Notes: generated by a model not told the origin, from the sequence alone. DNA of 64,000 nucleotides from Dehalococcoidia bacterium (GCA_965220565.1 CBDCQG010000001.1:1139473-1203472), one strand, 5' to 3'. Shown: positions 1,145 through 64,000, counted from the stretch's first letter. Made by a program: numbers and translations.

Positions 1145-1212
1145 ACCTCCGTCCACCCTTTGACAGGCTCAGGGTGAACGGAGGGCCGCCCCGCTATACT
1201 GTCCACACTGAT

Positions 1213-2430: not shown

Positions 2431-2457
2431 CGCCATCCCAACGGAGAGGTACGGCCC

Positions 2458-3228: not shown

Positions 3229-3309
3229 CGCTCGCCGCTTCCGACATGCGCCGCAGCCACACACCCCGTTGTCTATACTGAACGAACAATCCAGGAGGAA
3301 AGCAGCAGC

Positions 3310-4305: not shown

Positions 4306-4358
4306 AACAGGTTCCTCCCGCGTACGCGCGCCGCATGGAATAAGGCCAGATTTCACCC

Positions 4359-5276: not shown

Positions 5277-5301
5277 CGGCGGACGAAGGTATACTTGGCA
5301 C

Positions 5302-7450: not shown

Positions 7451-7608
7451 CCACCAGCCGTAGAAAACGCGGTTGGGGTGAACAAGAACCGATAATGCAG
7501 CGTTGACGGCGACCTCCCAATAAAAGCCAAAGCCCGCGAACGGGCGGATTGAATAAGTATAGCCCCGCTACACTACCCGGCGGCGCATTCCCCCCGGAGG
7601 CAGTCTGA

Positions 7609-10193: not shown

Positions 10194-10317
10194 GCCCCAT
10201 GCTAGGCGCGTGGGTGATGCAAACACAAACGTAAGTCCAGGCGGCAGGCGGGTTGCTACAATAGGTTTCAGCGCGCAGGACACACGTCATTTCAAATAGC
10301 AGAGGAGACCCAGCCGA

Positions 10318-11499
10318 ATGCCACTACCAGAGCAGGCACGCCGCGTCGCGCAGTTGCCCCCGTATCTCTTTGTGGAGGTCACGCGCAAGATCAACGAGAA
10401 GCGCGCCCGCGGCGAGGATGTCATCTCCCTCGCCATCGGCGACCCCGACCTGCCCTCCGCGCCTCACATCATCAGCGCGCTCGTCACATCGTTGGAGGAT
10501 GTCGCCAATCACCGCTACCCGGAATCCGACGGCCTGCCGGCGTTCAGGCGTTCAGTCGCCGACTGGTACAAGAAGCGGTTCGGCGTGGAGTTCGACCCCG
10601 ACACGGAAGTCCTCCCGACCATCGGCTCGAAGGAGGGCATCGCCCACATCGCGTGGTGCTACATCGACCAGGGCGACATCGCGTTGGTGCCTGACCCCGG
10701 CTATCCCGTCTACAGCGTTGGCACGATGCTGGCAGGCGGCGAATCGTATTACATGCCGCTCCATCGCGAGACCGGTTTCCTGCCGGACCTCGATGCGATT
10801 CCGGAGGATGTGGCCCGAAAGGCCAAGCTGTTGTGGATCAACTACCCCAACAACCCCACGGCGGCTGTCGCGGAACTGGATTTCTACGAGCGCGTCGTCG
10901 AGTTCGCCAGGAAGTACGACATCGTGGTCTGCCACGACGGCCCCTACACAGAGGTTGCGTTTGACGGGTACCAGCCCGTGAGCTTCATGCAGGTGGACGG
11001 GGCGAAGGACGTGGGCATCGAGTTCCACTCCCTGTCCAAGTCGTACAACATGACCGGCTGGCGAATCGGCATGACCGTCGGCAACGCTGAGGTCACCAAC
11101 GCGCTGATGCGGATCAAGTCGAACGTGGACTCCGGCGTGTTCCAGGCGGTGCAGTTGGCGGGCATCGCCGCGCTGGAAGGGCCGCAGGACACCATCGACC
11201 ACCACAACGCCGTCTACCAGGCGAGGCGAGACAAGCTCATCCCTGCCCTGCGTAAGATGGGGCTTGAGGTCGATCCGCCCAAGGCAAGCCTGTATGTTTG
11301 GGCCAAGCTGCCGGACGGAGTGTTGTCCGGCGACTTTGCCTCGCGCCTCATCGAGGAAGCGAATGTCGTTGTGACGCCGGGCCGCGGCTACGGCGAGGCG
11401 GGCGAGGGATACATCCGCTGCTCGCTGACCGTTGGGGATGACGCCCTTGACCGCGCGCTGGAGCGGCTGGGCAACGTGAACGTCTCTGATCTGATGTGA
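10318..11499 (+). CDS. dapL: PLP-dependent aminotransferase class I, LL-diaminopimelate aminotransferase (DapL)-like
   Basis: [10 protein letters not shown] and AIGDPDLP DapL-like motifs and ~393 aa length. dapF lies 4 kb upstream. Confidence 0.65.
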
Positions 11500-44080: not shown

Positions 44081-45511
44081 TTACCGTCCCGCGTATTCGA
44101 GGTCTATCGCCTCGTCGTAGATTTCGGTGTGAACCTCCGTGAACGAGTCCAGCGGAATTCCACGCTCCGCATCCACCGCCAGTGGACGCGCGACTGACCC
44201 GTCTGGGCCGGGCTCAAACATATACGCTCCGACATCGTCCGGTTGAAGGACCTCTTCGGCCTTGTACCGCCTCGCCGCCCGTCGCCGCTTCGATATTCCG
44301 CTCAGCATGACAAGGTTGCCCAACTGCGAGACGAGAAAATCGCTGTGTGTCGTGATAAGCACCTTCACGCCAGCGTTGACCAACATGGCAATCGCCCGTG
44401 CAAGACGACGCTGGTTGCCCGCATCGATATGCGACTCCGGCTCCTCGATGATGAACATATCCCCAGGCTCAACCATGTGTTTCAAATACAAGACGATGGG
44501 TGCGATTTCGGAAACCATCGACGAGGCCTCATGGAGCTGGAGTCTGCCCGCTTCGCCTTCAAAATAGACGGATGGGTATTCAGAAGAATCATCCAGCCTG
44601 ATTGAGCCGTGGGCCATCTTGTCCTCAAGATAATCAATAATCTCGTCCAATTGCGTTCCATGAGGTGCGTCTGGCGTCATCAACAAAAGATCCTGGATCA
44701 GGTCCGTCACGAAGCCGGGAAGGCGCGGAATCTCCAGCGAGCGTATCCATGCCCGCGAAGCTTGACCAACGATGAGGCTGGAGAACGTCTTGTGTCCAAG
44801 CAGAATGCCGGATCTGCTCGCTGGCATATAGTGCGCATGATCCAAGACTTTGGGGGGAGGGAATATCCCCAAGTTGGAGAACAGCATGCCCATCAAAAGG
44901 TTCTCGGAAATGTCTTCGAATTGAGGCAAGCGCGAGTTAAATGTCTGATCTGCCAGACTGTTCTGCCAGATTTCCGTGCCGAGATCACCACCTGCCGCCC
45001 TCGTCTCCCATTTGAACGCCCTGGCGTGCTGCTCAATTTCGATAGTCAGCTTTGGACGCTGCTTCCCATTGGCGCGCCGTCGAACCCTCTCTATGTCAGT
45101 GCCGTAAACCCGCTTGATTTCAGATGAGAGCATTTGTGCTAATCCTGCAGCAAACGCTTGGGACGCTCCTTCAAAGAGAGCTTGGATGCTCTGTGGCAGT
45201 TGCTCAATCTTCGGATTGTCAGGAAGCCGGCCTCCTCCGATCGAACGACCATCTGGGAAGATCCTCTCGACATCTTCCTTGGCCTTTAGGAGGAGTTCAG
45301 GGTTTATGAAATCGCCGAAATTCAGGTCGAATTCCCTCCAAGGCATCCTGCCGCCAAGCCTTCTTTCGGCAAGCGTCCTGGACAGGCAGTAGATTGCGAG
45401 AGCCATGTACGACTTGCCCGAATTGTTCGGGCCGACGAACACAGTCAAAGGCTTGATGTCCACCGAGGCCCGTCCTATCGGGCCCAGATCGCTCACACTG
45501 ACCGTTGTCAT
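44081..45511 (-). CDS. AAA15/ABC-type (OLD/SMC-like) ATPase
   Basis: Walker A GPNNSGKSY, YMPASRSG (Y.PA.R motif), Walker B MFIIEEPESHID and H-loop ITTHSDF. Low GC. Confidence 0.7.
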   Translation of the reverse strand: MTTVSVSDLGPIGRASVDIKPLTVFVGPNNSGKSYMALAIYCLSRTLAERRLGGRMPWREFDLNFGDFINPELLLKAKEDVERIFPDGRSIGGGRLPDNPKIEQLPQSIQALFEGASQAFAAGLAQMLSSEIKRVYGTDIERVRRRANGKQRPKLTIEIEQHARAFKWETRAAGGDLGTEIWQNSLADQTFNSRLPQFEDISENLLMGMLFSNLGIFPPPKVLDHAHYMPASRSGILLGHKTFSSLIVGQASRAWIRSLEIPRLPGFVTDLIQDLLLMTPDAPHGTQLDEIIDYLEDKMAHGSIRLDDSSEYPSVYFEGEAGRLQLHEASSMVSEIAPIVLYLKHMVEPGDMFIIEEPESHIDAGNQRRLARAIAMLVNAGVKVLITTHSDFLVSQLGNLVMLSGISKRRRAARRYKAEEVLQPDDVGAYMFEPGPDGSVARPLAVDAERGIPLDSFTEVHTEIYDEAIDLEYAGR

Positions 45512-51253: not shown

Positions 51254-52285
51254 TTAAGGAACGAGGAGCGGATGTTCCTCGGTGACGATCCACGTCTCCG
51301 CAGCCAACGCGTCTCGCAGCGGCTTTGGCAGCGAGAAGATGTGGCGATGCGTCATCCCGTCGTAATAGCGGAGGCTCACAGTGATGCGATCCGCGATGAG
51401 CGTGTCAACCCGCTCCGGTGCGAGTCCGGCAGGATCCTCGCCACTCTTCGACGCCAGCACAAAGCTCCACGCGCCGCCAAAGTCCATGATCACCGGGCTG
51501 TAGCCGGTGACGATCGGGAAGACGGAGTCCAGTGTGTGATAGAGGGCCGTGAATCCCCGCACGAGGTCAGTGAGCGCCTCGGGCTCATGGCTGTTGGCGT
51601 CCGTGGCCGGTCCCGCCGTCATGCCCGCGATGGCCGGGCCGGACTGCACAACGAGCGCGCCGTGGTCCGTCAGGCGTTCACTCGCCATGCGATAGAACTC
51701 CTGCGTATAGAGGCGGTAGGCAGGGCCGGCCTCCATCGGGTCCACGAGGTCGAGAATCATCACGTCGAACGGTTCCTCGGCGTTTTCAAGGTAGGCAAGC
51801 GCATCCTCATGACGCAGTTCGACGCGCGGATCGTCAAACGCCCCCTGGTGCCACGTGGGCAGATAGTGTTTGCAGAGGTCCACGACCTCTTCATCGAGGT
51901 CGACCATCACAACATGCTCAACGGAACGATGCCGCAGCACTTCCCTTAATGTGGCCCCTTCTCCGCCGCCGCCGATGAACACGCGGCGCGGCGCGGGGTG
52001 ATGGAGCATCACCGGATGAACAAGAGCCTCGTGATAGACGTACTCATCCGACTGGCTGGACTGCGTTTTGCCATCGAGGCGCAGGACACGGCCAAACGGC
52101 TCCGTGTCGAAAATCTCAACCTGCTGGTACCTGGTGCGGCCTGAATAGACGATGCTGCTGATGCGAGTCAGTTGATGGAGGGCAGGTGTGACGGCTTCCG
52201 TCGTCCACTCATTGCTGGAATACGGAAGCGCGTTTTGGCTGGCCGGACCGTTGTCCGCAGCCGGTTGATCAGGCGCCCGCGACAC
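51254..52285 (-). CDS. speE: Spermidine synthase / polyamine aminopropyltransferase
   Basis: VFIGGGGEGATLREVLRH and VVMVDLDEEVV. Confidence 0.8.
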   Translation of the reverse strand: MSRAPDQPAADNGPASQNALPYSSNEWTTEAVTPALHQLTRISSIVYSGRTRYQQVEIFDTEPFGRVLRLDGKTQSSQSDEYVYHEALVHPVMLHHPAPRRVFIGGGGEGATLREVLRHRSVEHVVMVDLDEEVVDLCKHYLPTWHQGAFDDPRVELRHEDALAYLENAEEPFDVMILDLVDPMEAGPAYRLYTQEFYRMASERLTDHGALVVQSGPAIAGMTAGPATDANSHEPEALTDLVRGFTALYHTLDSVFPIVTGYSPVIMDFGGAWSFVLASKSGEDPAGLAPERVDTLIADRITVSLRYYDGMTHRHIFSLPKPLRDALAAETWIVTEEHPLLVP

Positions 52286-52736
52286 CGGCGAAGTCGTGCT
52301 CCGAGCGAGCCACGGCGCTCAGGGACGGATCCAACTGGCCGCGCTGCAACGTGACAACCGACCGATCTTGAGAACGGAAAGCCTCGGCGATGTGCCGGGT
52401 AGCCTCATCGAGGCGTGACGTGTCGCCGCAGGTGAAGATGTCAACAGCGGCGTAACCGTGCTCCGGCCACGTGTGGATACAGATGTGAGATTCGGCGATG
52501 ATGACGACGCCGGTGACGCCCTGGGGGCTGAACTGGTGAAATGCGTGCCCGATAATGGTGGCGCCAATACGTTTTGCCGTGTCTATGAGCGTGGATTCAA
52601 CGATCTGCAGATCATCAAGCGCATTGGCATCACAATCGCGGAGTTCCACCAGCACATGCGTCCCTAGAGCATTCAATCTCACCTTCCCCCACATCAAGAT
52701 TTTTGGCGCAAGCGCCATTATACGGGCGGCGTTCAC
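52269..52736 (-). CDS. speH: S-adenosylmethionine decarboxylase proenzyme (class 1, pyruvoyl)
   Basis: ESHICIHTWPE processing/active-site motif. The true start is probably an internal Met at 52694 or 52718. Confidence 0.8.
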   Translation of the reverse strand: MNAARIMALAPKILMWGKVRLNALGTHVLVELRDCDANALDDLQIVESTLIDTAKRIGATIIGHAFHQFSPQGVTGVVIIAESHICIHTWPEHGYAAVDIFTCGDTSRLDEATRHIAEAFRSQDRSVVTLQRGQLDPSLSAVARSEHDFAGVAGA

Positions 52737-53054
52737 GCCGAATCAATAGGAAAAACACGCGTCCTGAGGCAAGGGCTCCTCTAATAAGACTGCGGCGGAA
52801 CGCTTGGGCGTTCCGCCGCATCTCTTTGGCACTTTCCCCTACCCTCGGGAAGCGCCTTTCCCCCATCCATCCTTTTGCGCGGGGAGATGGCTATGGGAGA
52901 AGGAGGAGTGAACCCACTTTAGCGAACGCACGTTCGCTTGTCAACCCTTTTTGGATGATTTGTTCCATTTTGGTCCGGGCATGACCTTGATTGGCAGGCA
53001 GAATCGGGCGCATAGTGGCGGCGCGGGCACGCGGGAATGACGGAGGATAGCATC

Positions 53055-54245
53055 ATGGATTTCAGTTACTCCGAGCAGGATGAGGCTCTCAAGCGAGAGG
53101 TGCAGGAGTTCGTGGAGGCAAACTGGCACTCCCCCTACGAGTCACACATCAATTCCGTCTATTCCTACGACGTCGATACGCCGGAGGATGAGGTACTGTT
53201 CCAGGAGTTCACGCGCAAGCTGGCCGACAAGGGCTGGTACACCATGCACTGGCCCCGTGAGTACGGCGGGCAGGCCGTTCCCTTCACGACGCAGATCGCC
53301 TACCGCGAAGAGATGGCCTACCGCGGCGCGCCCATCGCCCAGCCCGGCTTTGAAGCGCCCATGCTCATGTTCCACGGGCAGCCCTGGCAGAGAGACTTCT
53401 TCCTGCCAAAGATCGCCAGCGGCGAACTTATCTCATGGTCGCAGGGTTTCAGCGAGCCCAACGCGGGCGCCGACCTGGCAAACCTCCAGACTCGAGCCGT
53501 GCGTGACGGTGATGACTGGGTTGTCACAGGACAAAAAATCTGGAACAGCCAGGGGCACCATCCGTGGGTCGACTGGGGTCACTACCTGGTGCGGACGGAC
53601 CCGGACGCGCCGAAACACCGCGGCATTTCGTATCTCATCATCGACATGAACACGCCCGGAGTCGTCAAGCGACCCTTGATGGACGCGCTTGGACGACGGC
53701 GATGGAGCGAGATCTTTCTGGACAACGTCCGCGTTCCGTCTCGCAACGTCATCGGCGAGGAGAATCGCGGTTGGTACGCCGCCATGACGACGCTCTCCTT
53801 TGAACGCTCGCAGATCGAGGCCCCGGCGCGGCGGCTCCGCGACCTAGAGCGGTTCATCGATTACGCCCGCGAGGCCCGCGTCGACGGGGGTCGGCTTATC
53901 GACGACGCGCGAGCACGGCATCTGCTGGCAGAGGTGCGCATATTGATTGAGACCGGACGGATGCTCGCGCTGCAGGTGGCGTCGATCCAGAGCAAGGGCG
54001 AGGTCCCGATGATGGAGGCGGCGTTCTCCAAGCTCTTCCACGACGAGATGACGCCCCGGGTGTATGAGACGATCGCGCGGATACTCGGACAGGACTCCGC
54101 CATGACTGTCGGCGAGCCGCGCGCGCCGCTGGGCGGATACCCCGCCGTCAACTCCTACCTGAGCTGGATGAACCGTTTCGCCGGCGGCGGGCGTGAGATC
54201 CAGCTGAACATCATTGCACAACGGGGGCTAGGCCTCCCCCGCTAG
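53055..54245 (+). CDS. Acyl-CoA dehydrogenase family protein, paralog A
   Basis: WSQGFSEPNAGADL and DDWVVTGQKIWNS. The start is set at the second ATG (MDFSYSEQD), which aligns with paralog B (MDFRFTAED) and sits after GGAGGA. Confidence 0.8.
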   Translation: MDFSYSEQDEALKREVQEFVEANWHSPYESHINSVYSYDVDTPEDEVLFQEFTRKLADKGWYTMHWPREYGGQAVPFTTQIAYREEMAYRGAPIAQPGFEAPMLMFHGQPWQRDFFLPKIASGELISWSQGFSEPNAGADLANLQTRAVRDGDDWVVTGQKIWNSQGHHPWVDWGHYLVRTDPDAPKHRGISYLIIDMNTPGVVKRPLMDALGRRRWSEIFLDNVRVPSRNVIGEENRGWYAAMTTLSFERSQIEAPARRLRDLERFIDYAREARVDGGRLIDDARARHLLAEVRILIETGRMLALQVASIQSKGEVPMMEAAFSKLFHDEMTPRVYETIARILGQDSAMTVGEPRAPLGGYPAVNSYLSWMNRFAGGGREIQLNIIAQRGLGLPR

Positions 54246-54308
54246 ACAGCCACTTGCCCACTCAATGTAAACGGGCGCATAGTAGCGGCGATTGGGGGGT
54301 AAAGGCTT

Positions 54309-56720
54309 ATGGCTACAGATACTGCGCCGTTGAGCGGACTGCGCGTGCTGGAGATCGCGGGCGAACTCATTGAGCCTGTCGGGCGGCATCTCGTTGATCT
54401 CGGCGCGGACGTGACCCTTATCGAACCGCCGGGCGGCAGCCCGTCACGCCACATCGCGCCACACCCGACTCACCCAACAACCGAGCCGCGCAGCCTCTAT
54501 TTCCTGCGGTTCAACCTCGGCAAGCGCAGCGTCGTCCTCGACCTCGACACGGAAGAGGGCCTGACCGTCCTCCGGGAATCGCTGCTTCCGAACGCTGATG
54601 TCCTGATGACATCATTCAACCAGCAGGAACTGGAGTCGCGCGGCCTCGACCACGCCTCTCTCACGGCCATCAATCCCAACCTGATCCTGACCACCGTCAC
54701 GCCATACGGCCGTACGGGAATCCACTCAGGATTCGCGGGCAACGATTTCACTGCCGGGGCGGCAGGCGGCATGACATTCATGGAAGGAGAACGCGACGGC
54801 CTCCCCGCCGCGCAGCCGCACTACCAGGGTGTGCAGATGACGGCGCTGCACGCGGCATACGGCACGCTCCTGGCGTGGTGGCACGTGCGAAACGGCGGAC
54901 GCGGGCAAGAGGTGGATGTCTCTCTGCAGGACGTTGTGGCGCACGAGTATTTCAACCTGGTCTATTACGGTTCGTACGGCGAGATCGTCCAGCGCGTCGG
55001 CGGGCTGAGCGGCGGACGCCCCACCAACTACTTCCCCTGCTCCGACGGCTGGATACTGATGTCCCTCATCCTGCCGCACCAGTGGAAGGCGTTCGCGGAA
55101 TGGACTGAGGACCCGCTGATCATGGACGAGATGTTTGAGGATCAGGCGCTTCGGGCGGAGTCGGTTGAGTTTCTCGATGAGCGCATGTCCGAGTTCACGC
55201 GGTCGATGACCGTGCAGCAATTCCTTGAGGGTTCCATCCCGCGCCGGATTCCCGCCGGGCCGGTGAATGACATCGTCGGACTCATCAACCACCCGCACAC
55301 CATCGCGCGCAACGTCATGACGGAGGTTGACGACCCCGTCATCGGCGCGTACGCATCACAGGGCGCGCCGTTCAGACTGAGCCGCACGCCGTGGGAGATC
55401 AAGGGCCCTGCCCCAACCATCGGCCAGCACAACGACGATCTGGCAGCTATCTCTGCCCACCCGCACGAGAACGGCCATGTTTCGCCCGCAAACTCCGGCG
55501 CCGCTGAACGCGCGCTGCCGCTTGAGGGGATCCGCATCGTCGATCTGACGAAGTCGTGGGCGGGGCCGTACGGAGCGCGTTATTTGGCCGATTTCGGCGC
55601 GGAGGTCATCCGCATCGAGTCCACCAAGTTCCCCGAGGGACGCATCCTCGAGCAGGACGACTATGACGCCTGGCTCCGCTCCAACACCATGTATGCGGAG
55701 ATCAACCGCAACAAGTATTCCATCGCGCTCGATCTGCACTCGGATGAGGGCAAGGACATCTTCAGGAAACTGGTCGCCGAGAGCGACATCGTGCTCGAGA
55801 ATTTCCACTATGCCACCCTGCCCCGATGGGGCATGGCATACGACGACCTTAAAGAATTCAACCCGCGCATCATCGTGCTGAGCGCCCCCGGCTACGGCTA
55901 CGAGGGGCCGATCCGCGACTACTTTGCCTACGGCGGGTGCATCGGCGCGTTCGCGGGCATCTCAACGCTGTGGGGACATGCGGGTTCCGCCGTGAATGAG
56001 CGGCCCAAGCAGGCCTACACGGACTACGTGACGGCAGGTCATCTCGCCCTGTCCGTGATGGCCGCGCTTCATGAGCGCGAGCAGTCCGGCGAGGGGCAGC
56101 ACATCGAACTCACGCAGATCGACTCCGCCGCGGCCATGATGGGCACAGCCATCCTTGAACACACCATTAATGGAGAGACGCCGCAGCCCATCGGCAATCG
56201 CAGCCCGCATGCCGCGCCGCAGGGCGTGTATGCGTGCAGGGGCGATGACAAGTGGGTGGCCATCTCATGCGAGTCGGACGAGGAATGGCAGGCGCTGGCA
56301 AAACTCATGGGCATGGCGCTGCCGTCCGAGCTCCGTGAGAAGACCGCAACTGTGCAGTCGCGCCGCGAACTGCATGATGAAATCGACGACGCCATCGGCG
56401 AGTGGACGTCCGTCTGTACGCCGGGGCAGGTGATGCAGGCCTGCCAGAAGATTGGCGTCAAGGCAGCCATCGTCGCGTCCGGCGAGGATCTTTATCACGA
56501 CCCGCACCTGCGGTCGCGGGGGTACGTCGTGGAGATCGACCATCCGTGGCCGGGCAAGCTCCAGCACCCGGGCATGACCGTGCGGCTGACGCAGACGCCG
56601 GGGCAGGTGCGCCTGCCCGCGCCGCTCACGGGCCAACACACGGCGGAGGTGCTGGAGCACGTGCTCGGCATCACGAGCGATGAGGCAGAGGAACTGACAA
56701 AGGCCGGCGTGCTGGTCTAG
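54309..56720 (+). CDS. Tandem-fused double family III CoA-transferase (CaiB/BaiF x2)
   Basis: Two complete ~400-aa CoA-transferase modules. Each begins with GLRVLEIAG / GIRIVDLTKSWAG and contains the conserved Asp region. Confidence 0.8.
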   Translation: MATDTAPLSGLRVLEIAGELIEPVGRHLVDLGADVTLIEPPGGSPSRHIAPHPTHPTTEPRSLYFLRFNLGKRSVVLDLDTEEGLTVLRESLLPNADVLMTSFNQQELESRGLDHASLTAINPNLILTTVTPYGRTGIHSGFAGNDFTAGAAGGMTFMEGERDGLPAAQPHYQGVQMTALHAAYGTLLAWWHVRNGGRGQEVDVSLQDVVAHEYFNLVYYGSYGEIVQRVGGLSGGRPTNYFPCSDGWILMSLILPHQWKAFAEWTEDPLIMDEMFEDQALRAESVEFLDERMSEFTRSMTVQQFLEGSIPRRIPAGPVNDIVGLINHPHTIARNVMTEVDDPVIGAYASQGAPFRLSRTPWEIKGPAPTIGQHNDDLAAISAHPHENGHVSPANSGAAERALPLEGIRIVDLTKSWAGPYGARYLADFGAEVIRIESTKFPEGRILEQDDYDAWLRSNTMYAEINRNKYSIALDLHSDEGKDIFRKLVAESDIVLENFHYATLPRWGMAYDDLKEFNPRIIVLSAPGYGYEGPIRDYFAYGGCIGAFAGISTLWGHAGSAVNERPKQAYTDYVTAGHLALSVMAALHEREQSGEGQHIELTQIDSAAAMMGTAILEHTINGETPQPIGNRSPHAAPQGVYACRGDDKWVAISCESDEEWQALAKLMGMALPSELREKTATVQSRRELHDEIDDAIGEWTSVCTPGQVMQACQKIGVKAAIVASGEDLYHDPHLRSRGYVVEIDHPWPGKLQHPGMTVRLTQTPGQVRLPAPLTGQHTAEVLEHVLGITSDEAEELTKAGVLV

Positions 56721-56737
56721 GGGAGATTGGGGGAGCG

Positions 56738-57928
56738 ATGGATTTCAGATTCACTGCCGAGGATCAGCAGTTGCGCGACGAGGTAAAGAACTTCGTCGAG
56801 AGCGAGTGGGACGCGCAAGGCATCGACTCGTTCAGCAACTCCGTCTATTCCTATGACGTCCACCACGTCGAGGACGACCGGCGCATCCATGAGTACACGA
56901 AGAAGCTTGCCGACCGCGGCTGGTACACCATGCACTGGCCGGAGGAGTTCGGCGGGCAGAACGCGCCGCTGAGCCGCGTGCTGGCCTACCGCGAGGAGGC
57001 CGCCTATCGCGGCTCGCCCGTCACCACGCCAACCTTCTTTGCCCACACGCTCATGTACTACGGGCAGGACTGGCAGAAGGAAGAGATACTCGGCAAGATC
57101 GCGAGCGGCGAGCTGATCAACTTCTCGCAGGGGTTCAGCGAGCCGAACGCCGGGGCGGACCTCGGCAGCCTGCAGACGCGCGCCGTGCAGGACGGCGACG
57201 ATTGGGTCATCACCGGCCAGAAGATCTGGAACACCGGCGGGCACATGGCGGACATCGGCCACTACCTCGTGCGCACCGACCCACAGGCGCCCAAGCACCG
57301 CGGCATCTCCTATTTCATTGTTGATATGCACGACCCCGGAATCACGCTCAGGCCGTTGTTCGATGCTCTCGGAAAACAGCGATGGGTTGAGGTGTTCCTG
57401 GACGGCGCGCGCGTGCCCTCACGCAACCTGGTTGGTGAACTGAATCGCGGCTGGTATGCCGCCATGACGAACATGTCGTTTGAGCGGTCGAACGTCGAGG
57501 CCCCGTCGTACCGCCTCCGCGACCTCGAAAATTTTTTGGACTATGCCCGTGAGACGCGCCTGTCGGACGGCAGTCTTATCCTTGACGATCCCATCGCGCG
57601 GCACGTTCTGGCGGACGCGCGGGTGCTGATCGAGCTTGGGCGGATGATCTCGTACCAGGTGGCGTGGATCCAGAGCAAGGGCGAGGTTCCGGCGATGGAG
57701 TCGGCGTTCTCCAAGTTGTTCCACGACGAGATGACGCCCACCGTGTTCGGGTCGCTGAACCGCCTGCTGCGGGAGTCCGGCATCTTCAACGTGGGTGACC
57801 CGCGCGCGCCGATGAACGGCTACCCACAGGTGAACTCCTACCTGAGCTGGATGAACCGCTTCGCCGGCGGCGGCCGGGAGATCGAGCTGAATATCATCGC
57901 GCAACGGGGGTTGGGTTTGCCGCGGTAG
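56738..57928 (+). CDS. Acyl-CoA dehydrogenase family protein, paralog B
   Basis: FSQGFSEPNAGADL. The C-terminus NSYLSWMNRFAGGGREIELNIIAQRGLGLPR is nearly identical to paralog A. Confidence 0.8.
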   Translation: MDFRFTAEDQQLRDEVKNFVESEWDAQGIDSFSNSVYSYDVHHVEDDRRIHEYTKKLADRGWYTMHWPEEFGGQNAPLSRVLAYREEAAYRGSPVTTPTFFAHTLMYYGQDWQKEEILGKIASGELINFSQGFSEPNAGADLGSLQTRAVQDGDDWVITGQKIWNTGGHMADIGHYLVRTDPQAPKHRGISYFIVDMHDPGITLRPLFDALGKQRWVEVFLDGARVPSRNLVGELNRGWYAAMTNMSFERSNVEAPSYRLRDLENFLDYARETRLSDGSLILDDPIARHVLADARVLIELGRMISYQVAWIQSKGEVPAMESAFSKLFHDEMTPTVFGSLNRLLRESGIFNVGDPRAPMNGYPQVNSYLSWMNRFAGGGREIELNIIAQRGLGLPR

Positions 57929-57979
57929 CGATTACCGAGGTTCTATCCTAATTCGCATCTACTCCCCACAGACCGACAT

Positions 57980-60187
57980 ATGGCCCGTGCCCGATACATC
58001 ACATGCAGTGTATGCAGAGTCAGCATGCACAACTATGCGTACGACTATCACGAGCACAACTCCCGCCGAAAGCCCGTCCCGGATAATTCAGAACGCTGCA
58101 CCGGCTGTCACGGTACCGGCCTGATACAAGGCGGCCAAGCCCACTATCTGGGCGGTCGAGTCCTACGGTGCACGCGCTGTGGCGGTCATGGATGGGTACG
58201 TGCCACGTATACCGCTCGCCCGTCACCTCGCGGAGGCATATCGTTCCTCAAGCCCAACCCGGATCTGGACCTATCACCGTCGGGCCGCGAACGGCTGATG
58301 GAAGAGGTGGAGCAAGTCGCGTCCGATGCGGAAAAAGAAGCAGAAGAGGAACGGCTGGCACGCTTACATGAGCGCATAGAGGAGCAAGAGCGTCGAGCGG
58401 AAGAAAGACGATTAGCGCGCGAGCGAAAGCAAACAGAAAGGCAAGAGCGCCGAGCGGAAGAAAGACGCACAGTACCCGAGCCCCGGCAAGAGATGACGAT
58501 GGAGCAAAAGGCACGGGAATTGGAGGAGCGAACATGGCGACATTCGTCCATCTGCCAGTGCGAGGCTTGTGCCGAGAAGCGCAGACTTCAGAGGCACTTG
58601 TCATACAGCAAGCGAAGGAGACGGGGTGAGAGGCCGTCTCCGAATAATCCACAGACTGACCCTGCCGAGATATGGGGTGAGGCAGCCAGGCGGCCCATTT
58701 TCGCCCCCGGCATGAGCTCACAGCAAATAGATGAAATTGGGGCTGCGCGTTCGCGGTCCCGCAAGCGGTTCCCCACCAAGTTCCTAATGTTCATTCTCGC
58801 GCTGGGCCTGCTTGGCGGCGGCGCTTACCTTGCCGCAACGCCGGCCGGAAACGATCTCCTTGATCGGGCGATGGACACTTTCCAGGATTGGACAAGCGGC
58901 GGAGGAAATTCCGCAGGATCGCCTGACGACGGCGGCTCCGGCAGCGGGGGTGGCAGTCTCCCAGCGGCGGCGCCGCCCGATACACCCACGCCAACTGCGA
59001 CCGCAACCTCAATTCCCACCGCCACACCCGCGCCAACACCTACCGTTGTGCCCGTGGGTCCGTGGGCAGGTTTCACGATAACGTCGGCCACCTTGGGCAA
59101 GGAGGTCCTGGACCGCCTGTCAGACGATGAGGTTGCCTGTCTGCAATTGGCAAATACATTTGTACATCCGCATCACTTTGCAACTTATCCACTGGGGATT
59201 CGAATCGACACTAACCCACCCGTCCGCGATGCCACCGACCTGCCGGAACTGTTTGACTGCCTGACATCCGAAAGCGCTCAGCATCTCGATTGGGCGATTG
59301 CGGTATTTCATGATCCGACGTTGGCGCCGACGCCCGAGCCAACAGTCAACCCGGAACCAACGCCTGAGCCGACGGAGGCGCCCAAGCCAACAGTAGAACC
59401 GGAGCCAACGCCCAAGCCGACAGCAACGCCGAAGCCAACACCCGGAGCTCATCTCCTCCATCTGGATGAGAAGAAATATATGTTGGAACTGATCAACAAT
59501 GTGCGCAGAGCAAATGGGCTTACAGAGCTGGAACTCGGAGACAATATCGCCGCGCAACTGCATGCCGAAAGCGCCCTCAAGAACTGTGTCTCATCACATT
59601 GGGGTTTGGACGGCTTAAAGCCCGGCATGCGCTACAGCCTCGCAGGCGGATATCAGTCCAATGGAGAAAATGTGTCCGGGTTGGACTATTGCTACAGCGC
59701 AAGAGACCGGGTGGCAACTATAGGAAGCGTACGCCAGAAAATCTTGCAGGCTCATCAGGGTTTGATGGGCAGCCCGGGACATCGAGCCAATATCCTGCGC
59801 GAGACTCATCGCAAGGTGAATATCGGACTGGCATGGGATCGTTACAACCTCTACCTGGCCCAACATTTTGAAGGCGGCCACGTTGAATATGAGCAGTTGC
59901 CTGAGATTTCAAACGGGGTCCTGCAAGTGAAAGGGAGCCTGGCTTCGGATTTCCGTTTTACGGGTGATGATGCGCTCGGTCTTCAGATCTACTATGACCC
60001 GCCTCCCCATAACCTGACACGCGGCCAGGTTTCACGGACGTACTGCTACGACAATGGCCGGCAGGTCGCCGCTCTGCGTCCACCACTATCCGGCGGATTC
60101 TACTATCCAACGCACTCGTTCACGACGAACCAGCAATTCTGCCCAAGCCCCTATGATGTTCCATCCACGGCTCAAGCTCCACGCTAG
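57980..60187 (+). CDS. Multidomain membrane protein: N-terminal DnaJ-type CxxCxGxG zinc-finger, charged coiled-coil, TM helix, PT linkers, C-terminal CAP/SCP/PR1-like domain
   Basis: CSVC, CTGCHGTG, CTRCGGHG, a 19-aa E/R repeat, the TM FLMFILALGLLGGGAYLAA, and a C-terminal ELINNVRRANGL...HRANIL...LAQHFEGGH (CAP-like). GC ~55%. Confidence 0.55.
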   Translation: MARARYITCSVCRVSMHNYAYDYHEHNSRRKPVPDNSERCTGCHGTGLIQGGQAHYLGGRVLRCTRCGGHGWVRATYTARPSPRGGISFLKPNPDLDLSPSGRERLMEEVEQVASDAEKEAEEERLARLHERIEEQERRAEERRLARERKQTERQERRAEERRTVPEPRQEMTMEQKARELEERTWRHSSICQCEACAEKRRLQRHLSYSKRRRRGERPSPNNPQTDPAEIWGEAARRPIFAPGMSSQQIDEIGAARSRSRKRFPTKFLMFILALGLLGGGAYLAATPAGNDLLDRAMDTFQDWTSGGGNSAGSPDDGGSGSGGGSLPAAAPPDTPTPTATATSIPTATPAPTPTVVPVGPWAGFTITSATLGKEVLDRLSDDEVACLQLANTFVHPHHFATYPLGIRIDTNPPVRDATDLPELFDCLTSESAQHLDWAIAVFHDPTLAPTPEPTVNPEPTPEPTEAPKPTVEPEPTPKPTATPKPTPGAHLLHLDEKKYMLELINNVRRANGLTELELGDNIAAQLHAESALKNCVSSHWGLDGLKPGMRYSLAGGYQSNGENVSGLDYCYSARDRVATIGSVRQKILQAHQGLMGSPGHRANILRETHRKVNIGLAWDRYNLYLAQHFEGGHVEYEQLPEISNGVLQVKGSLASDFRFTGDDALGLQIYYDPPPHNLTRGQVSRTYCYDNGRQVAALRPPLSGGFYYPTHSFTTNQQFCPSPYDVPSTAQAPR

Positions 60188-60475
60188 GGAGAGGAGTCCC
60201 ACCGCTTTTGGGCGAGCGCCAAGGCCGAAAGTGAAAGACTGGGCACTGTTCCTGTAACCGTTCCCTGGATTACTGCCAGCAGGCTACAAGCACGCGGGCA
60301 GGGTTTTGAGGCACGGGCATCGATACAGGATGTGCTGAATCGGTATGGACCAGGCGTTTATTCCATCATTGTTTGGGGTGATTTGGCCGGTCATGATGAA
60401 TCAGTCGTTATTTCACAGTATTCACTGTTCTACCAAATCGACCCACCTGCAACATACGATCCGTAACCGTTGATG

Positions 60476-60513
60476 GTGACAACATGCCCTGCTTATGTCA
60501 CTGTGTCCGCAAC
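60476..60513. promoter_or_regulatory. Conserved upstream element GTGACAAC-N13-TATGTCACTGTGTCCGCAAC (copy 1, upstream of maoC-N)
   Basis: Contains the inverted repeat GTGACA...TGTCAC. It is paralogous to 62410-62446. Confidence 0.45.
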
Positions 60514-60538
60514 ATGGGGGTTGAGAGGGGGCATCGCT

Positions 60539-61072
60539 ATGGCATCTGAGCCTGAGACGTATATCACGCCGGAGGTGGAGGTGTATATCGGGACGGAGAG
60601 TCCGCCGCTTGTCTCGCCGCCGGTGTCCGAGAGCGAGATCCGCCGGTTCGCCATCGCCGCGTATTGGCCGGAGGTGCCGCCGCGCCGCTTCTGGGACGAG
60701 GAGTACGCCAGGGAAACCCGCTTCGGCGGGATCGTCGCGCCGGATGAGTTCAACCCGTTCGGGTGGATGGTCGGGCGGGCGCACATCGGCCCGCAGCCTA
60801 CGCACATCGACGATGCCCAGGGAGAGCTTGAGGAGGCGCGCAACCTGCGGCCGCCCGGCGCGCCGGAGCGGTATCTCTATGCAGGGTCATCGTCCGAGTA
60901 CCACGCGCCCATCCGCCCCGGCGACGTCATCACGTCCATCCTGAAACTGACGGAGGTGTATGAGCGGCAGGGCGGGCTGGGGCTGATGCTGTTCTACGTC
61001 GTTGAGGAGCGCATGACGAACCAGAACGGCGAGCTGGTTCGCGTGTTTCGCACCAATAACATCCTGTACTAG
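60539..61072 (+). CDS. MaoC-like dehydratase N-terminal-domain protein (hot-dog hydratase subunit, ChsH2/HadA-like)
   Basis: About 178 aa with a MaoC N-domain architecture. The ATG at 60539 follows GAGAGGGGG. Confidence 0.6.
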   Translation: MASEPETYITPEVEVYIGTESPPLVSPPVSESEIRRFAIAAYWPEVPPRRFWDEEYARETRFGGIVAPDEFNPFGWMVGRAHIGPQPTHIDDAQGELEEARNLRPPGAPERYLYAGSSSEYHAPIRPGDVITSILKLTEVYERQGGLGLMLFYVVEERMTNQNGELVRVFRTNNILY

Positions 61073-61133
61073 GGTGTGGGATTTGCGGTACGGGGGTTTG
61101 GTTGGGCAATGAGTTCTGGATTCCCGCTTTCGC

Positions 61134-61180
61134 GGGAATGACGGGTGGGAGTCGGGAATGACGGGTGGCGGGGATGACGG
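61134..61180 (+). repeat. 20-nt-period direct repeats (GGGAATGACGGGTGG x2 plus degenerate GGGGATGACGG) immediately upstream of maoC-C
   Basis: Seen directly in the sequence. They are preceded by a hairpin ATTCCCGC-TTTC-GCGGGAAT at 61120-61139. Confidence 0.5.
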
Positions 61181-61194
61181 AGAGGAGAGAGACG

Positions 61195-61620
61195 ATGACA
61201 CTCTACTGGCAAGACGTTGACGAGGGCGCGGAGATTCCGGCGTTCTCACGCACGACGACCCTGATGAACTGGAACCGGTGGGCATCCGTGAACGATGAGT
61301 TCGTGCCGATGCACATGGACGACGACGATGCCCGCGCGAACGGCCAGCAGGCCGCGTTCGGCGAGGGGCCGCTGCGGTATTCATACCTGCACAGCGCGCT
61401 GCGCGAGTGGATCGGCGACGACGGGGACATCGTGTTCGTCAACGCGCAGTACCGCGGCATCAACTACAAGGGCGACACCTTGACCGTCTCAGGCCGCGTG
61501 ACCGGCAAGCGTGAGGAGAACGGCCGCCATCTCGTGGACGTGGACCTCGCCATCACCAATCAGCGCGGCGAGGCAGTCACGCCGGGCAACGCGACGGTGG
61601 CGCTGCCGAGCAGGGGCTAA
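61195..61620 (+). CDS. MaoC-like (R)-specific enoyl-CoA hydratase hot-dog subunit (ChsH1/HadB-like)
   Basis: About 141 aa hot-dog fold with NDEFVPMHMDDDDARANG (hydratase motif region). RBS GGAGAGGAGAG. Confidence 0.65.
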   Translation: MTLYWQDVDEGAEIPAFSRTTTLMNWNRWASVNDEFVPMHMDDDDARANGQQAAFGEGPLRYSYLHSALREWIGDDGDIVFVNAQYRGINYKGDTLTVSGRVTGKREENGRHLVDVDLAITNQRGEAVTPGNATVALPSRG

Positions 61621-61623
61621 CCA

Positions 61624-62061
61624 CTACCGGCTTACTGTCAGCGGGTTATGCCAGCGGAGGCCGGAAAAGCGGCCAAAGTCGTTGTCACCGGAATGAACCT
61701 CAGCCTGGTGCTCCATGGCCAGCGCCGCGATGTGCGCGTCAGTCGTCAGGTTTCCCCCAACGGCCGCTGCCAGAAGGGCCTGTCGCAAGAAGATCATGTG
61801 CCGCGCGCCGGGGTTTAGCGGCATGACATGTGGATAGCTGAACCACTCATCCACAGCATCCACGGCTTCCCCAAGCGTTGCGGGCCGTGTGAGGACGGCT
61901 CTACTCGTCATCAGTCGGATAAATCCCGCAGCAACAATCCACGGAATCCCAACTCGCTCGTCCCCATCCACCACGCCTTCCCACCAACGGCTGGCAGTAT
62001 CGTGGCGGGGCGCGTGGGGGTTGTAGGCGTAGATGAGCAGATTGGTGTCAGGAATAATCAC
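61624..62061 (-). CDS. vapC: PIN-domain toxin VapC
   Basis: IIPDTNLLIY, TTDAHIAA and SGDNDF acidic residues. GTG start overlapping the vapB stop. Confidence 0.8.
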   Translation of the reverse strand: MIIPDTNLLIYAYNPHAPRHDTASRWWEGVVDGDERVGIPWIVAAGFIRLMTSRAVLTRPATLGEAVDAVDEWFSYPHVMPLNPGARHMIFLRQALLAAAVGGNLTTDAHIAALAMEHQAEVHSGDNDFGRFSGLRWHNPLTVSR

Positions 62062-62345
62062 TCAGCGGGTTTTTCCTCAGTGTGCTGTCCCTCGGGATGC
62101 TTCTCGAGGAACGACTGTATCTCAAGTTCATCGTAGAGTTGATTGAGGCGGAAGGGATCAATATCCGGGCGGAATCCGCCGCCTATGGGACGAACCCTAA
62201 AGGGCTTGCGTTTCTCCGCTTGCGTAGGCGAAAGGCCTCGCCGCAACGCGTCATTCACAACCTCCTTGAAAGACACGTTGTACAGCGCAGCCTGCTCACG
62301 CAGGCTATGCGCAACATCCTCATCAAGCGTCAATGTCGTTCTCAT
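62058..62345 (-). CDS. vapB: VapB-type antitoxin (RHH-like)
   Basis: MRTTLTLDEDVAHSLREQAALYNVSFKEVVNDALRRGL, and a 4-nt overlap with vapC. Confidence 0.65.
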   Translation of the reverse strand: MRTTLTLDEDVAHSLREQAALYNVSFKEVVNDALRRGLSPTQAEKRKPFRVRPIGGGFRPDIDPFRLNQLYDELEIQSFLEKHPEGQHTEEKPAE

Positions 62346-62409
62346 GTAGACATCATGATGCCTTGCATCCATGCTGTCAAGATGCTTCCCTTCTCCGCCC
62401 ACCGCCCGC

Positions 62410-62446
62410 GTGACAACCCTGCCCTTCCTATGTCACTGTGTGCGCA
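62410..62446. promoter_or_regulatory. Conserved upstream element, copy 2 (upstream of the thiolase, divergent from vapB)
   Basis: GTGACAACCCTGCCCTTCCTATGTCACTGTGTGCGCA, with an extra GTGACAAG downstream. Confidence 0.45.
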
Positions 62447-62486
62447 GCGGGTGACAAGCGCCCACGTGGGGGAGGGGGAACAGTCT

Positions 62487-63656
62487 ATGACAACTGCAAG
62501 TGATCTATCGCGCGTGGCGGCGATTATCGGGGTGGATGAGTCCGATGAGATGGGGCACGTGCCGCACAAATCGTCGATGCAGCATCACGCGGAGGCAGCA
62601 GATAACGCGCTGCGCGACGCGGGCCTGACGCTGGATGACGTCGATGCGCTGTTCTGCGCCGGCGTCGGAACGGTCTCCGTCGCTGAGTATCTCGGCATCG
62701 TTCCCAAGTACACGGACACCACGTCCATCGGCGGCTCGTCGTTCCTTGCGCACGTGGAGCATGCGATGGCCGCCATCAACGCGGGGCTCATCGATGTCGC
62801 GCTGATCACGCACGGCGAGGCGGGGCGTTCATCCCGTGCTCGCGCGGGCCGCGACCCAACGGCGGCAGGCTCACAATTTGAGGCGCCCTACGGCATGATC
62901 GGCGCGCCGGTTGCGTATGCCATGGCATGCAGCCGCTACATGCACATGTACGGCGCAGAGCGTGTGCGGCAGGGCATGGCGGACGTGTCCATCGCCACGC
63001 GCAAGTGGGCCCTCAAGAATGAAAAATCGTTCGTCAATCATCCCTCCTGGATCGGCCCCGCAGACGTGGGCTATGAGGAATACCACGATTCCCGCTGGAT
63101 CGCGTGGCCGTTCCACATCATGGACTGCTGCCTGGTGACGGACGGCGGCGGGGCATGCGTGGTGGTGTCGGCGGACGTTGCCCGCAACGCGAAGAAGAAG
63201 CCTGCGTGGATCCTTGGCTCCGCGGAGGGGCACGACCACCAGATCATCAGCCAGATGCCGGACCTCACGCGCACCATCGCGCATGAGACCGGACCGCGCG
63301 CGTTGGAAATGGCGGGCGTCACACACGACGATATCGACCTCGCGATGATCTACGACTCGTTCACCTACACGGTGCTGACAACGCTGGAGAGCCTGGGGTT
63401 CTGCGGGCCGGGCGAGGCGCCGGATTTCGTGGCGAACCTGCGCACCGGGCCGGGCGGCGACTTCCCGATGAACACCAGCGGCGGCGGCCTGTCCTATGCC
63501 CACACGGGCATGTACGGCATGTTCCTGCTGATTGAGGCGACGCGGCAGCTGCGCGGCGAAAGCGGGGATCGGCAGGTTGAAGACTGCAACCTGTCGCTGG
63601 TGCATGGCACCGGCGGCGAGCTTTCCTCCACCGCGACGCTGGTCTTGGGCAACTAA
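62487..63656 (+). CDS. SCP-x-type thiolase / lipid-transfer protein (Ltp-like)
   Basis: A thiolase fold without a classical Cys-His-Cys triad arrangement, 390 aa. A DUF35 partner follows directly. Confidence 0.7.
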   Translation: MTTASDLSRVAAIIGVDESDEMGHVPHKSSMQHHAEAADNALRDAGLTLDDVDALFCAGVGTVSVAEYLGIVPKYTDTTSIGGSSFLAHVEHAMAAINAGLIDVALITHGEAGRSSRARAGRDPTAAGSQFEAPYGMIGAPVAYAMACSRYMHMYGAERVRQGMADVSIATRKWALKNEKSFVNHPSWIGPADVGYEEYHDSRWIAWPFHIMDCCLVTDGGGACVVVSADVARNAKKKPAWILGSAEGHDHQIISQMPDLTRTIAHETGPRALEMAGVTHDDIDLAMIYDSFTYTVLTTLESLGFCGPGEAPDFVANLRTGPGGDFPMNTSGGGLSYAHTGMYGMFLLIEATRQLRGESGDRQVEDCNLSLVHGTGGELSSTATLVLGN

Positions 63657-63669
63657 TAGGAGAACCACC

Positions 63670-64000
63670 ATGACAACTCAACCACCGACGGGAATGCCGA
63701 AGCCCCTGCCGACGCCGACGCAGGAAAACGACTTCTACTGGGAGAAATGCCACGAGCACGAGTTGTGGCTGCGAAGCTGCAACACCTGCGATGAGACGTA
63801 CTTCTACCCGCGGGATCTGTGCCCGATATGCCACTCCCGTGATACCACGTGGGTGCAGGCGAGCGGACGCGGCGAGGTGCATGCGTATGCCGTCGTTGAG
63901 CGGCCGCCGACGCCCGCCTTTGCGCAGGAGGTGCCGTTCATCACGGCGCTGATCAAGCTGGAGGAGGGGCCGATCCTGCCGACAAAGATTGTCGGCGTAG
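63670..64000 (+). CDS. DUF35 Zn-ribbon/OB-fold protein (thiolase partner), 3' end beyond the window
   Basis: CNTCDETYFYPRDLCPICHS zinc ribbon. RBS TAGGAGAA. Confidence 0.65.
   Translation, partial: MTTQPPTGMPKPLPTPTQENDFYWEKCHEHELWLRSCNTCDETYFYPRDLCPICHSRDTTWVQASGRGEVHAYAVVERPPTPAFAQEVPFITALIKLEEGPILPTKIVGV

Follow-up and report, generated by a model that had tools for sequence, protein, structure and literature searches.

Seven genes at the end of a 64,000-nucleotide (nt) stretch of DNA from a Dehalococcoidia bacterium (GCA_965220565.1; the whole stretch is called the window here) appear to form one catabolic operon for an acid beyond the reach of ordinary β-oxidation, which would be processed by coenzyme A (CoA) transfer, dehydrogenation, hydration and retro-aldol cleavage. 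We put the probability of this reading at roughly 0.55. The case is built on domain families, residue patterns, a conserved gene order and tight spacing, and from these we infer the order of the reactions, the CoA donor, the chemistry of the aldolase and the class of substrate. The locus occupies positions 53005-64000 of the window and its gene content was established by listing open reading frames (ORFs) and by profile searches against Pfam and NCBIfam. The core genes are:

53055-54245, plus strand: ACAD-A, an acyl-CoA dehydrogenase (ACAD) with three ACAD Pfam domains; the ORF opens at 53037
54309-56720, plus strand: tandem-fused family III CoA-transferase of 803 amino acids (aa), with two PF02515 stretches (609 bits)
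56738-57928, plus strand: ACAD-B, a paralogue of ACAD-A with a catalytic Glu
60539-61072, plus strand: MaoC-N type hot-dog protein (PF13452, 83.9 bits)
61195-61620, plus strand: MaoC hot-dog protein (PF01575, 24.6 bits, slightly below the cut-off of 27); the ORF opens at 61165
62484-63656, plus strand: thiolase-like protein (PF22691, 208 bits)
63670-64000, plus strand: DUF35 protein, cut by the end of the window (zf-ChsH2, 35.9 bits, and OB_ChsH2_C, 51.1 bits)

For ACAD-A the likely start is 53055, because this position is preceded by a GGAGG ribosome-binding site and the orthologues are 396 aa long, and for MaoC it is 61195, because the orthologues are 141-146 aa long. All ten genes named in an earlier reading of the sequence alone, the seven above together with three that lie between them, were recovered at or close to the places it gave them. 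That sequence-only reading had described a cluster resembling those for the β-oxidation of steroid side chains, with the working logic of the actinobacterial igr/chs operons, and the parts on which the likeness was founded are all present: an ACAD, a two-protein MaoC-type hydratase and a cysteine-less thiolase-fold protein with a DUF35 partner.

The operon was compared with 17 related Dehalococcoidia loci, from 16 species-level genomes of about 1.9 Mb each and one metagenome contig (L002), across which the orthologues of the fused CoA-transferase are 80-95% identical. Sponge symbionts account for at least two of the relatives, the bins SB0661 (Ircinia ramosa) and APA (Aplysina aerophoba); the lineage is one of uncultivated Dehalococcoidia with some members living in sponges. 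Order and strand of the core genes are kept in 17/17, with a divergent speD-speE pair upstream; the L017 locus breaks off before the thiolase-like and DUF35 genes, and counts for these two cover 16 genomes. In two of the 17 (L008 and L010) the operon runs without interruption, with successive gaps of 64, 20-22, 51-64, 28-31, 111-112 and 17 nt. The core proteins are 85-100% identical between species, compared with 73-94% for the flanking SpeE, and ACAD-A reaches 94-99% across 17 species. Even at a CoA-transferase identity of 60%, an ACAD gene, the CoA-transferase gene and the MaoC-N/MaoC genes are still found together. The remainder of the window holds housekeeping genes, with no further ACAD, thiolase or steroid-type gene among them. 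Within the operon we found no 3-hydroxyacyl-CoA dehydrogenase, true thiolase or acyl-CoA ligase in any genome examined, which fits an aldolytic route that begins with CoA transfer.

In the pathway that we propose, the single-chain CoA-transferase would move CoA from a donor thioester to the free acid at one intact site, with no ATP spent; the donor would most likely be succinyl-CoA or the acyl-CoA released in the last step. ACAD-A or ACAD-B, both predicted to be α-type flavoenzymes with a widened acyl pocket, would then form the 2,3-double bond, the two of them probably serving two related substrates or isomers. A MaoC-N/MaoC heteromer would add water to give a (3R)-hydroxyacyl-CoA. Finally the cysteine-less thiolase-fold protein, held by DUF35, would cleave the bond between Cα and Cβ in a retro-aldol reaction, with the Tyr of a YDSF motif as the base and an invariant His as the likely acid, releasing a short acyl-CoA, which could be reused as the CoA donor, along with a ketone or aldehyde.

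The CoA-transferase has the PF02515 fold and an Asp equivalent to Asp169 of Frc, as expected of family III. Its N-terminal half (approximately residues 1-395) carries this catalytic Asp146, while the C-terminal half (approximately residues 396-803) has Gly542 at the same position. Asp146 aligns with the Asp of 9fn0_A ('GSD') and of 4ed9 ('GYD') and Gly542 matches the Gly of 9fn0_B. The two 9fn0 chains are those of benzylsuccinate CoA-transferase, and each half of the fused protein has its own counterpart there, the C-half scoring 231 bits with 9fn0_B and the N-half 152 bits with 9fn0_A. The asymmetry is widespread, with Asp or Glu in the N-half of 111 of 118 fused proteins and Gly in the C-half of 114. 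The enzyme would therefore seem to be a heterodimer within one chain with a single intact active site, because the Asp is found in the N-half only and the C-half has Gly. A literature search on 9FN0 returned nothing useful. The nearest NCBIfam families are succinyl-CoA-dependent dicarboxylate transferases (succinate-glutarate and succinyl-CoA:mesaconate), all scoring far below the cut-offs. The link to bile acids drawn in the sequence-only reading was one of name: 'BaiF' is part of the family's title, the nearest characterised relatives act on dicarboxylates, benzylsuccinate CoA-transferase being the nearest of all, and we dropped the bile-acid identity.

Such relatives would suit a pathway for a substituted succinate or a small branched dicarboxylate (an alkyl- or arylsuccinate, methylsuccinate or an itaconate-like acid), with succinyl-CoA-dependent activation, dehydrogenation, hydration and an aldol cleavage that regenerates succinyl-CoA, or gives acetyl- or propionyl-CoA, such that the CoA cycles internally. 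The ACADs match methylsuccinyl-CoA dehydrogenase (6es9) with 103-111 bits, and a MaoC-N profile matches itaconyl-CoA hydratase. There are also parallels with the benzylsuccinate (Bbs) pathway, in which one half of the CoA-transferase likewise lacks the Asp and an ACAD is included. In BbsAB the DUF35 protein is free-standing next to the thiolase, and the DUF35 gene of the window similarly stands by itself beside that of the thiolase-fold protein. In Bbs, however, the transferase subunits are separate rather than fused, the hydratase is the crotonase BbsH rather than a MaoC-type protein, and there is a dehydrogenase, BbsCD. Neither of these, nor a Cys-containing BbsB, is found in the operon of any genome; the thiolase-fold protein of the window lacks the cysteines, so it cannot carry out thiolysis, and its match to BbsB (92 bits) is much weaker than those to the aldolases Sal and Ltp2. 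With the NCBIfam scores so far below the equivalog cut-offs, and a widened ACAD pocket that favours a bulky acyl group over a C5 diacid, we consider this scheme to be unlikely. For the operon as we read it, the widened pocket of the ACADs hints at an acyl group that is bulky or branched, and the relatives of the CoA-transferase hint at dicarboxylates.

The two ACADs share 66% identity over their full length. Among solved structures ACAD-A is closest to the steroid α-subunits ChsE4 (4x28_A, 203 bits) and Tcur3483 (6wy9_A, 167 bits), with the next ACAD at 125 bits; the corresponding values for ACAD-B are 176, 177 and 112 bits. The steroid subunits are thus ahead by 42-78 bits for ACAD-A and by 64-65 bits for ACAD-B, as ranks of bit scores and not as phylogeny. 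The Glu of 'SFERS' is kept in both proteins and aligns with Glu247 of ChsE4, which we take to be the catalytic base. A Glu at this place is of the LCAD/IVD type and lies on helix G (PMC11153573). The Pro of 'RGAPI' in ACAD-A and 'RGSPV' in ACAD-B aligns with ChsE4 Pro89, the residue that widens the pocket of ChsE4 and LCAD by unwinding helix E (PMC11153573), so that both the affiliation with the steroid α-subunits and the widened pocket apply to the two enzymes alike.

This does not make them an α2β2 enzyme. The sequence-only reading had seen in them a heteromeric α/β pair like FadE28-FadE29, in which one partner might have lost the catalytic Glu, and had based this on a near-identical C-terminus. 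Both proteins are α-type: identity between them is 66%, and neither has lost the Glu or the SEPNAGAD and GQKIWN segments; a diverged β-subunit without the Glu is not among them, and no β-type ACAD is present in the 64-kb window. The α/β pair was therefore rejected. The likeness of the C-termini is real, though identity runs at 66% over the whole length and is not confined to the end. The same C-terminus is seen in ChsE4, Tcur3483 and the ACADs of a more distant Dehalococcoidia locus (L028), and the synonymous third-position identity of the segment, 0.65, is like that of the rest of the gene. We therefore attribute it to constraint rather than to heteromer formation or gene conversion, both of which were discarded. 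The paralogues diverge most at residues 1-45, 76-105 and 331-345, the second of these segments covering the Pro-loop and helix E that line the pocket, a pattern that would fit differing acyl specificities.

The hydratase is encoded as two proteins, as in HadA-HadB and ChsH2N-ChsH1. A profile of the MaoC subunit matches 4v12 (68 bits), HadB (52 bits) and chain B of ChsH1-ChsH2 (44 bits). A search of the PDB with the single MaoC-N sequence gave no match and a profile was needed; built from 30 homologues, this matched HadA (37 bits), the N-terminal part of itaconyl-CoA hydratase (33 bits) and chain A of ChsH1-ChsH2 (28 bits). Such scores do not tell the known families apart. The catalytic His is conserved in MaoC, which is presumed to be the catalytic subunit of an (R)-specific enoyl-CoA hydratase, with MaoC-N its presumed non-catalytic partner. 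The split hydratase of the sequence-only reading is therefore confirmed as a two-protein PF13452/PF01575 pair, whereas its specific kinship with ChsH1/ChsH2 is not, the HadB/HadA scores being 52/37 bits against 44/28 bits for ChsH. In hydratases of the ChsH1-ChsH2 type DUF35 is fused to the non-catalytic subunit; here it is a separate gene.

The slightly better matches to HadA and HadB could point to a biosynthetic dehydratase system, and the name 'CaiB-like' given to homologues in the sources, with the CaiB enrichment of sponge symbionts that has been read as carnitine use (PMC6306507), to carnitine or crotonobetaine metabolism by CaiA/CaiB-like enzymes. Taken together we regard these two possibilities as highly improbable. 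A HadAB-like system would be expected in other company than this, as there are no acyl carrier protein, ketosynthase or reductase genes, and for carnitine there is no CaiC, CaiD or CaiT. The carnitine pathway was rejected on its equivalog scores, which are far below the cut-offs: 196 bits for CaiB where 413 are needed, and 74-82 bits for CaiA where 540 are needed.

The closest solved relative of the thiolase-like protein is 4u4e (447 bits), followed by Sal (9myr, 166 bits), Ltp2 (6ok1, 157 bits) and BbsB (92 bits), with true thiolases at 92 bits or less. PDB entry 4U4E is named 'Thiolase', a name that assigns no function, and its GGSS, YDSF and SY(T)H(P)GMYG motifs are those of the window protein; a literature search on it found no paper or function. 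As in Sal, the position of the nucleophilic Cys is occupied by Gly ('IGGSS'). The 'HDCF' motif of SCP2 reads 'YDSF', and a His is found at the position of Tyr344 in Ltp2 and Gln352 in Sal. Across 121 homologues there is no variation in the 'GG', the 'YDSF' or the His of 'SY.H.GMYG'. The protein cannot be a thiolase, SCP-x or other, because the nucleophilic Cys is Gly and HDCF is YDSF. In the two known aldolases the base is a Tyr, Tyr294 of the YDHF motif in Ltp2 and Tyr302 of the YDCY motif in Sal, while Tyr344 of Ltp2 and Cys304 of Sal act as the acid (PMC12329534). The window protein shares with Ltp2 the missing Cys and the Tyr and differs in having YDSF and His; relative to Sal it has Ser for the essential Cys and His for Gln. 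We therefore predict a retro-aldolase of a distinct 'YDSF + His' type. The sequence-only reading, which called the protein an SCP-x-type thiolase and likened it to an Ltp2-like aldolase working with DUF35, was right in so far as the aldolases Sal and Ltp2 outscore the thiolases, while the active site is that of neither.

The DUF35 protein has a canonical C4 zinc ribbon (Cys-x2-Cys-x10-Cys-x2-Cys) and is free-standing rather than fused to the hydratase; its orthologues are 142 aa long, and a full-length one in L010 matches both zf-ChsH2 and OB_ChsH2_C. The locus mentioned above, L028 (positions 597-10432), has a cluster of two α-type ACADs (both with SFERS), a YDCY Sal-type thiolase-like protein, two crotonases, an NMO-type protein, and MaoC-N and MaoC proteins sharing 68% and 72% identity with those of the window; over these positions no DUF35 gene was seen. 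In two of the three neighbourhoods examined in other Chloroflexota, a YDSF thiolase-like/DUF35 pair lies at or near a gene on the opposite strand for a small GBBH-like_N (PF06155) protein; in L022-L024 the two adjoin, and in L021 (9001-11781) the distance is one gene.

How far the operon is related to the known steroid side-chain modules can now be considered. In igr/chs (ChsE1-ChsE2, ChsH1-ChsH2 and Ltp2 of M. tuberculosis, with homologues in T. curvata) the chemistry runs in the same order, from an ACAD through a heteromeric MaoC-type hydratase to a DUF35-bound thiolase-fold aldolase. Shared features are the ACADs closest to steroid α-subunits, the thiolase fold with no nucleophilic Cys and with the Tyr of YDxF, and the C4 zinc ribbon. 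Unlike igr/chs, the window has two α-type ACADs rather than an α/β pair, a DUF35 gene that follows the aldolase gene instead of being fused to the hydratase, YDSF with His at the Tyr344 position, an embedded CoA-transferase, a hydratase that is not ChsH-specific and no steroid genes nearby. The proteobacterial bile-acid hydratase and aldolase Shy-Sal (PMC12329534, PMC11321319) provide the second comparison, Sal being the best match among functionally characterised solved proteins. Sal and the window protein have in common the Gly at the nucleophile position and the Tyr base. However, Sal needs Cys304, where the window protein naturally has Ser, and the position of its Gln352 is His in the window, and Shy combines MaoC and DUF35 in one fused protein whose zinc site is of the Cys3His kind.

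It is very unlikely, in our estimation, that the operon is a genuine sterol or bile-acid side-chain module equivalent to ChsE/ChsH/Ltp2 or Scd/Shy/Sal, acting for example on the sterols of a sponge host. Such a module would account for ACADs nearest to steroid α-subunits with the pocket-widening Pro kept, and for a thiolase-like protein nearer to Sal and Ltp2 than to thiolases. The gene order also parallels that of igr, where ACADs are followed by MaoC-N type, MaoC and thiolase-like genes, and sponges, the hosts of at least two of the relatives, are rich in sterols. It would leave unexplained the absence of a β-type partner, the unfused DUF35, a hydratase that is not specifically ChsH-like and an aldolase motif that is neither YDHF with Tyr nor YDCY. 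The CoA-transferase is BbsEF-like, whereas known steroid pathways use acyl-CoA ligases. The genomes are small, only about 1.9 Mb, and ring genes are not seen nearby: none like cyp125, kstD, ksh, hsa or ipd is present in the 64-kb window or within 10 kb in the relatives. The operon thus resembles steroid side-chain modules only in part, with a similar working logic and several of their defining features missing. Of the steroid proposal made from the sequence alone, the affinities of the ACADs and of the aldolase stand; the ACAD pair, the CoA-transferase, the hydratase, the free-standing DUF35, the active site and the lack of ring genes in the window and within 10 kb in the relatives do not support it.

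The core genes are also connected by a conserved intergenic motif of 36 nt, GTGACAAC, 10-12 nt and YTRTGYCACTGTGTSSGCA, which contains inverted half-sites (GTGACA, 14 nt, TGTCAC and then TGTGT). The window has two copies:

60476-60511, plus strand: copy 1, upstream of the MaoC-N gene
62410-62446, plus strand: copy 2, 45-60 nt upstream of the thiolase-like gene

At this second site, 45-60 nt before the thiolase-like gene, the motif is found in 16/16 related genomes reaching that gene. Extra copies precede the MaoC-N gene in the window and seven relatives and ACAD-B in two relatives, and they occur only where an insertion separates the gene in question from the operon genes upstream. The core of the motif has two exact copies in the window where 0.02 matches would be expected by chance, and it is apparently specific to the operon. 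It probably acts as an operator or promoter, so that parts of the operon cut off by an insertion stay expressed or co-regulated. A σ70 promoter was rejected, as a scan gave no match and manual spacing checks fail. We also set aside an integron attC-like cassette boundary, the motif being missing from many insertions yet present before the thiolase-like gene in compact operons. A search of positions 52000-64000 against Rfam identified no known RNA.

Several observations weigh against the operon acting as the single pathway described above. The hydratase pair scores at least as high with the biosynthetic HadAB as with ChsH1/ChsH2, and 14 of the 15 closest family members have Glu ('NDEFVPMH') in place of the Asp of the MaoC motif, the remaining, P0276-like group having Trp. 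The C304S variant of Sal is inactive (PMC12329534), so the YDSF site cannot work exactly as Sal does, and although the invariant His is the obvious candidate for the acid, its naming as such is a guess. Fused CoA-transferases are common in Dehalococcoidia and those of 46% identity or less sit in unrelated contexts; no conserved gene context was found around these more distant paralogues. In other Chloroflexota the thiolase-like/DUF35 pair (63-69% identity) occurs alone among housekeeping genes, and in all species whose locus reaches it the thiolase-like gene has its own upstream motif. What the pair does may thus be unconnected with the other five genes.

The last two of these points would be explained if two unrelated neighbours had been taken for one unit, namely an ACAD/CoA-transferase/hydratase set and a separate, Chloroflexota-wide thiolase-like/DUF35 pair of unrelated function. 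Elsewhere the pair lies beside tRNA synthetase, ribosomal and other housekeeping genes, and even in compact operons it is set off by its motif and a gap of 111 nt. We nevertheless think this division improbable, because adjacency and order are kept in 16/16 genomes reaching the pair despite heavy turnover at the junctions. The same motif stands before MaoC-N or ACAD-B where insertions separate them, which suggests common regulation, and in L028 the YDCY clade of thiolase-like proteins clusters with the same ACAD and MaoC families. One operon of seven genes is the reading that we retain.

The sequence-only reading had the cluster interrupted by foreign insertions, and the comparison between genomes bears this out and extends it. 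The genes concerned in the window are:

57980-60187, plus strand: CAP/YkwD-domain protein of 735 aa (PF00188, 27.2 bits for a cut-off of 21.1; TIGR02909, 35 bits)
61624-62061, minus strand: VapC PIN-domain toxin (TIGR00028, 136 bits for a cut-off of 73.6; PF01850)
62058-62345, minus strand, with the ORF extending to 62402: putative VapB antitoxin, overlapping vapC by 4 nt

Both the CAP gene and vapBC are missing from the compact operons, and they are not part of the pathway. The G+C content is 0.62-0.66 in the core genes and falls to 0.54-0.60 in vapB and the latter half of the CAP gene. Across the 17 related genomes four of the six junctions between core genes are variable. At the ACAD-B/MaoC-N junction a CAP-domain protein of 575-871 aa is found on the same strand, as in the window, in eight (L004, L011, L012 and L014-L018), while the others have HNH endonucleases with or without HicB, or HicAB, or, in three (L008, L010 and L013), nothing. 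The junction between MaoC and the thiolase-like gene holds vapBC in 4/17 besides the window, and elsewhere a DUF433/DUF5615 pair, HicAB, RNase H, an ORF of unknown kind or nothing. The CoA-transferase/ACAD-B junction, usually 20 nt, contains a PPC-domain protein or two unknown ORFs in some genomes, and that between ACAD-A and the CoA-transferase, usually 64 nt, an unknown ORF or a ResIII helicase in single genomes. The core genes themselves are never disrupted (L001-L018). The junctions are hot spots at which closely related species carry different small selfish or accessory genes.

The CAP-domain relatives in the junction are 43-70% identical where measured, while their neighbours are 93-99% identical. 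The three empty ACAD-B/MaoC-N gaps are not homologous to one another, so the CAP gene may have resided here for long, evolving fast and now and then being lost, rather than having arrived recently. The protein has an N-terminal CxxC zinc ribbon (DnaJ-type CxxCxGxG), a charged coiled coil, a transmembrane segment, a Pro/Thr-rich linker and the CAP/YkwD domain; in L011 the N-terminus is a full J-domain instead of the zinc ribbon. In sponge symbionts it could act at the surface or in interaction with the host. The vapBC genes have the make-up of a type II toxin-antitoxin system, with a PIN toxin and a small overlapping gene upstream, though the putative VapB matches no Pfam or NCBIfam family. A promoter-like site (TTGACA-17-CATGAT) precedes vapB at 62380-62352 on the minus strand. 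It ends 7 nt before the likely start codon (MRTTLTLDED), and this position suggests a leaderless vapB transcript.

Two further features of the window were noted. Between speD and ACAD-A, at 52737-52945 on the minus strand, is a candidate cis-regulatory leader of the speD-speE polyamine operon, in which about 130 nt of leader, hardly varying between 12 species, come after a promoter-like TTGACA-17-TAAAGT. The leader has a CU-rich stretch (ACUCCUCCUUCUCCC) paired to GGGAGAA and a 13-bp GC hairpin (52820-52791), with compensatory double changes in up to 7 of the 12 sequences per pair and a U-rich tail after it; the leader had no match in Rfam. In L007, L016 and L017 the gap between speD and ACAD-A has grown to about 1.15 kb. 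At 44081-45511 on the minus strand a 476-aa AAA_15/AAA_21 ATPase (AbiEii-like domain family), with an orthologue in L001, adjoins RNase D-like and UvrD genes and is possibly related to defence.

Expansions of the CaiB/BaiF family III CoA-transferases in SAR202 and sponge Chloroflexi have been described, with a proposal that CoA is shuffled into degradation without ATP (PMC6306507). The family is the same and the lineages and habitats are related, but that work concerns the enrichment of the family only and contains neither the fused one-site architecture nor this operon. Our literature search on SAR202 with these enzyme names found nothing specific. In marine and sponge Chloroflexi few families are as expanded as the CaiB/BaiF CoA-transferases, ACADs and thiolase-like proteins, whose link to the degradation of recalcitrant organic matter has been only a loose one. 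The operon offers a defined and conserved seven-gene unit with predictions at the level of residues, namely a transferase site with one Asp, two ACADs divergent in the pocket and a Tyr/His aldolase, and it would give a function to a very large orphan clade of thiolase-like proteins with a solved structure. It also shows how a conserved operon can repeatedly take in toxin-antitoxin, HNH and surface-protein genes between its own genes and stay intact. More tentatively, and on balance we would sooner bet against it, the YDSF/His thiolase-fold proteins could be a third class of CoA-ester retro-aldolase with thousands of members in Chloroflexota and a single orphan crystal structure, 4U4E, which together with the one-site CoA-transferase and the twin α-type ACADs would form a closed CoA cycle, free of ATP and NAD, for cutting side chains off branched or alicyclic acids. 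If this is true, the breakdown of recalcitrant dissolved organic matter that has long been proposed for SAR202-like and sponge Chloroflexi would have a concrete set of enzymes behind it.

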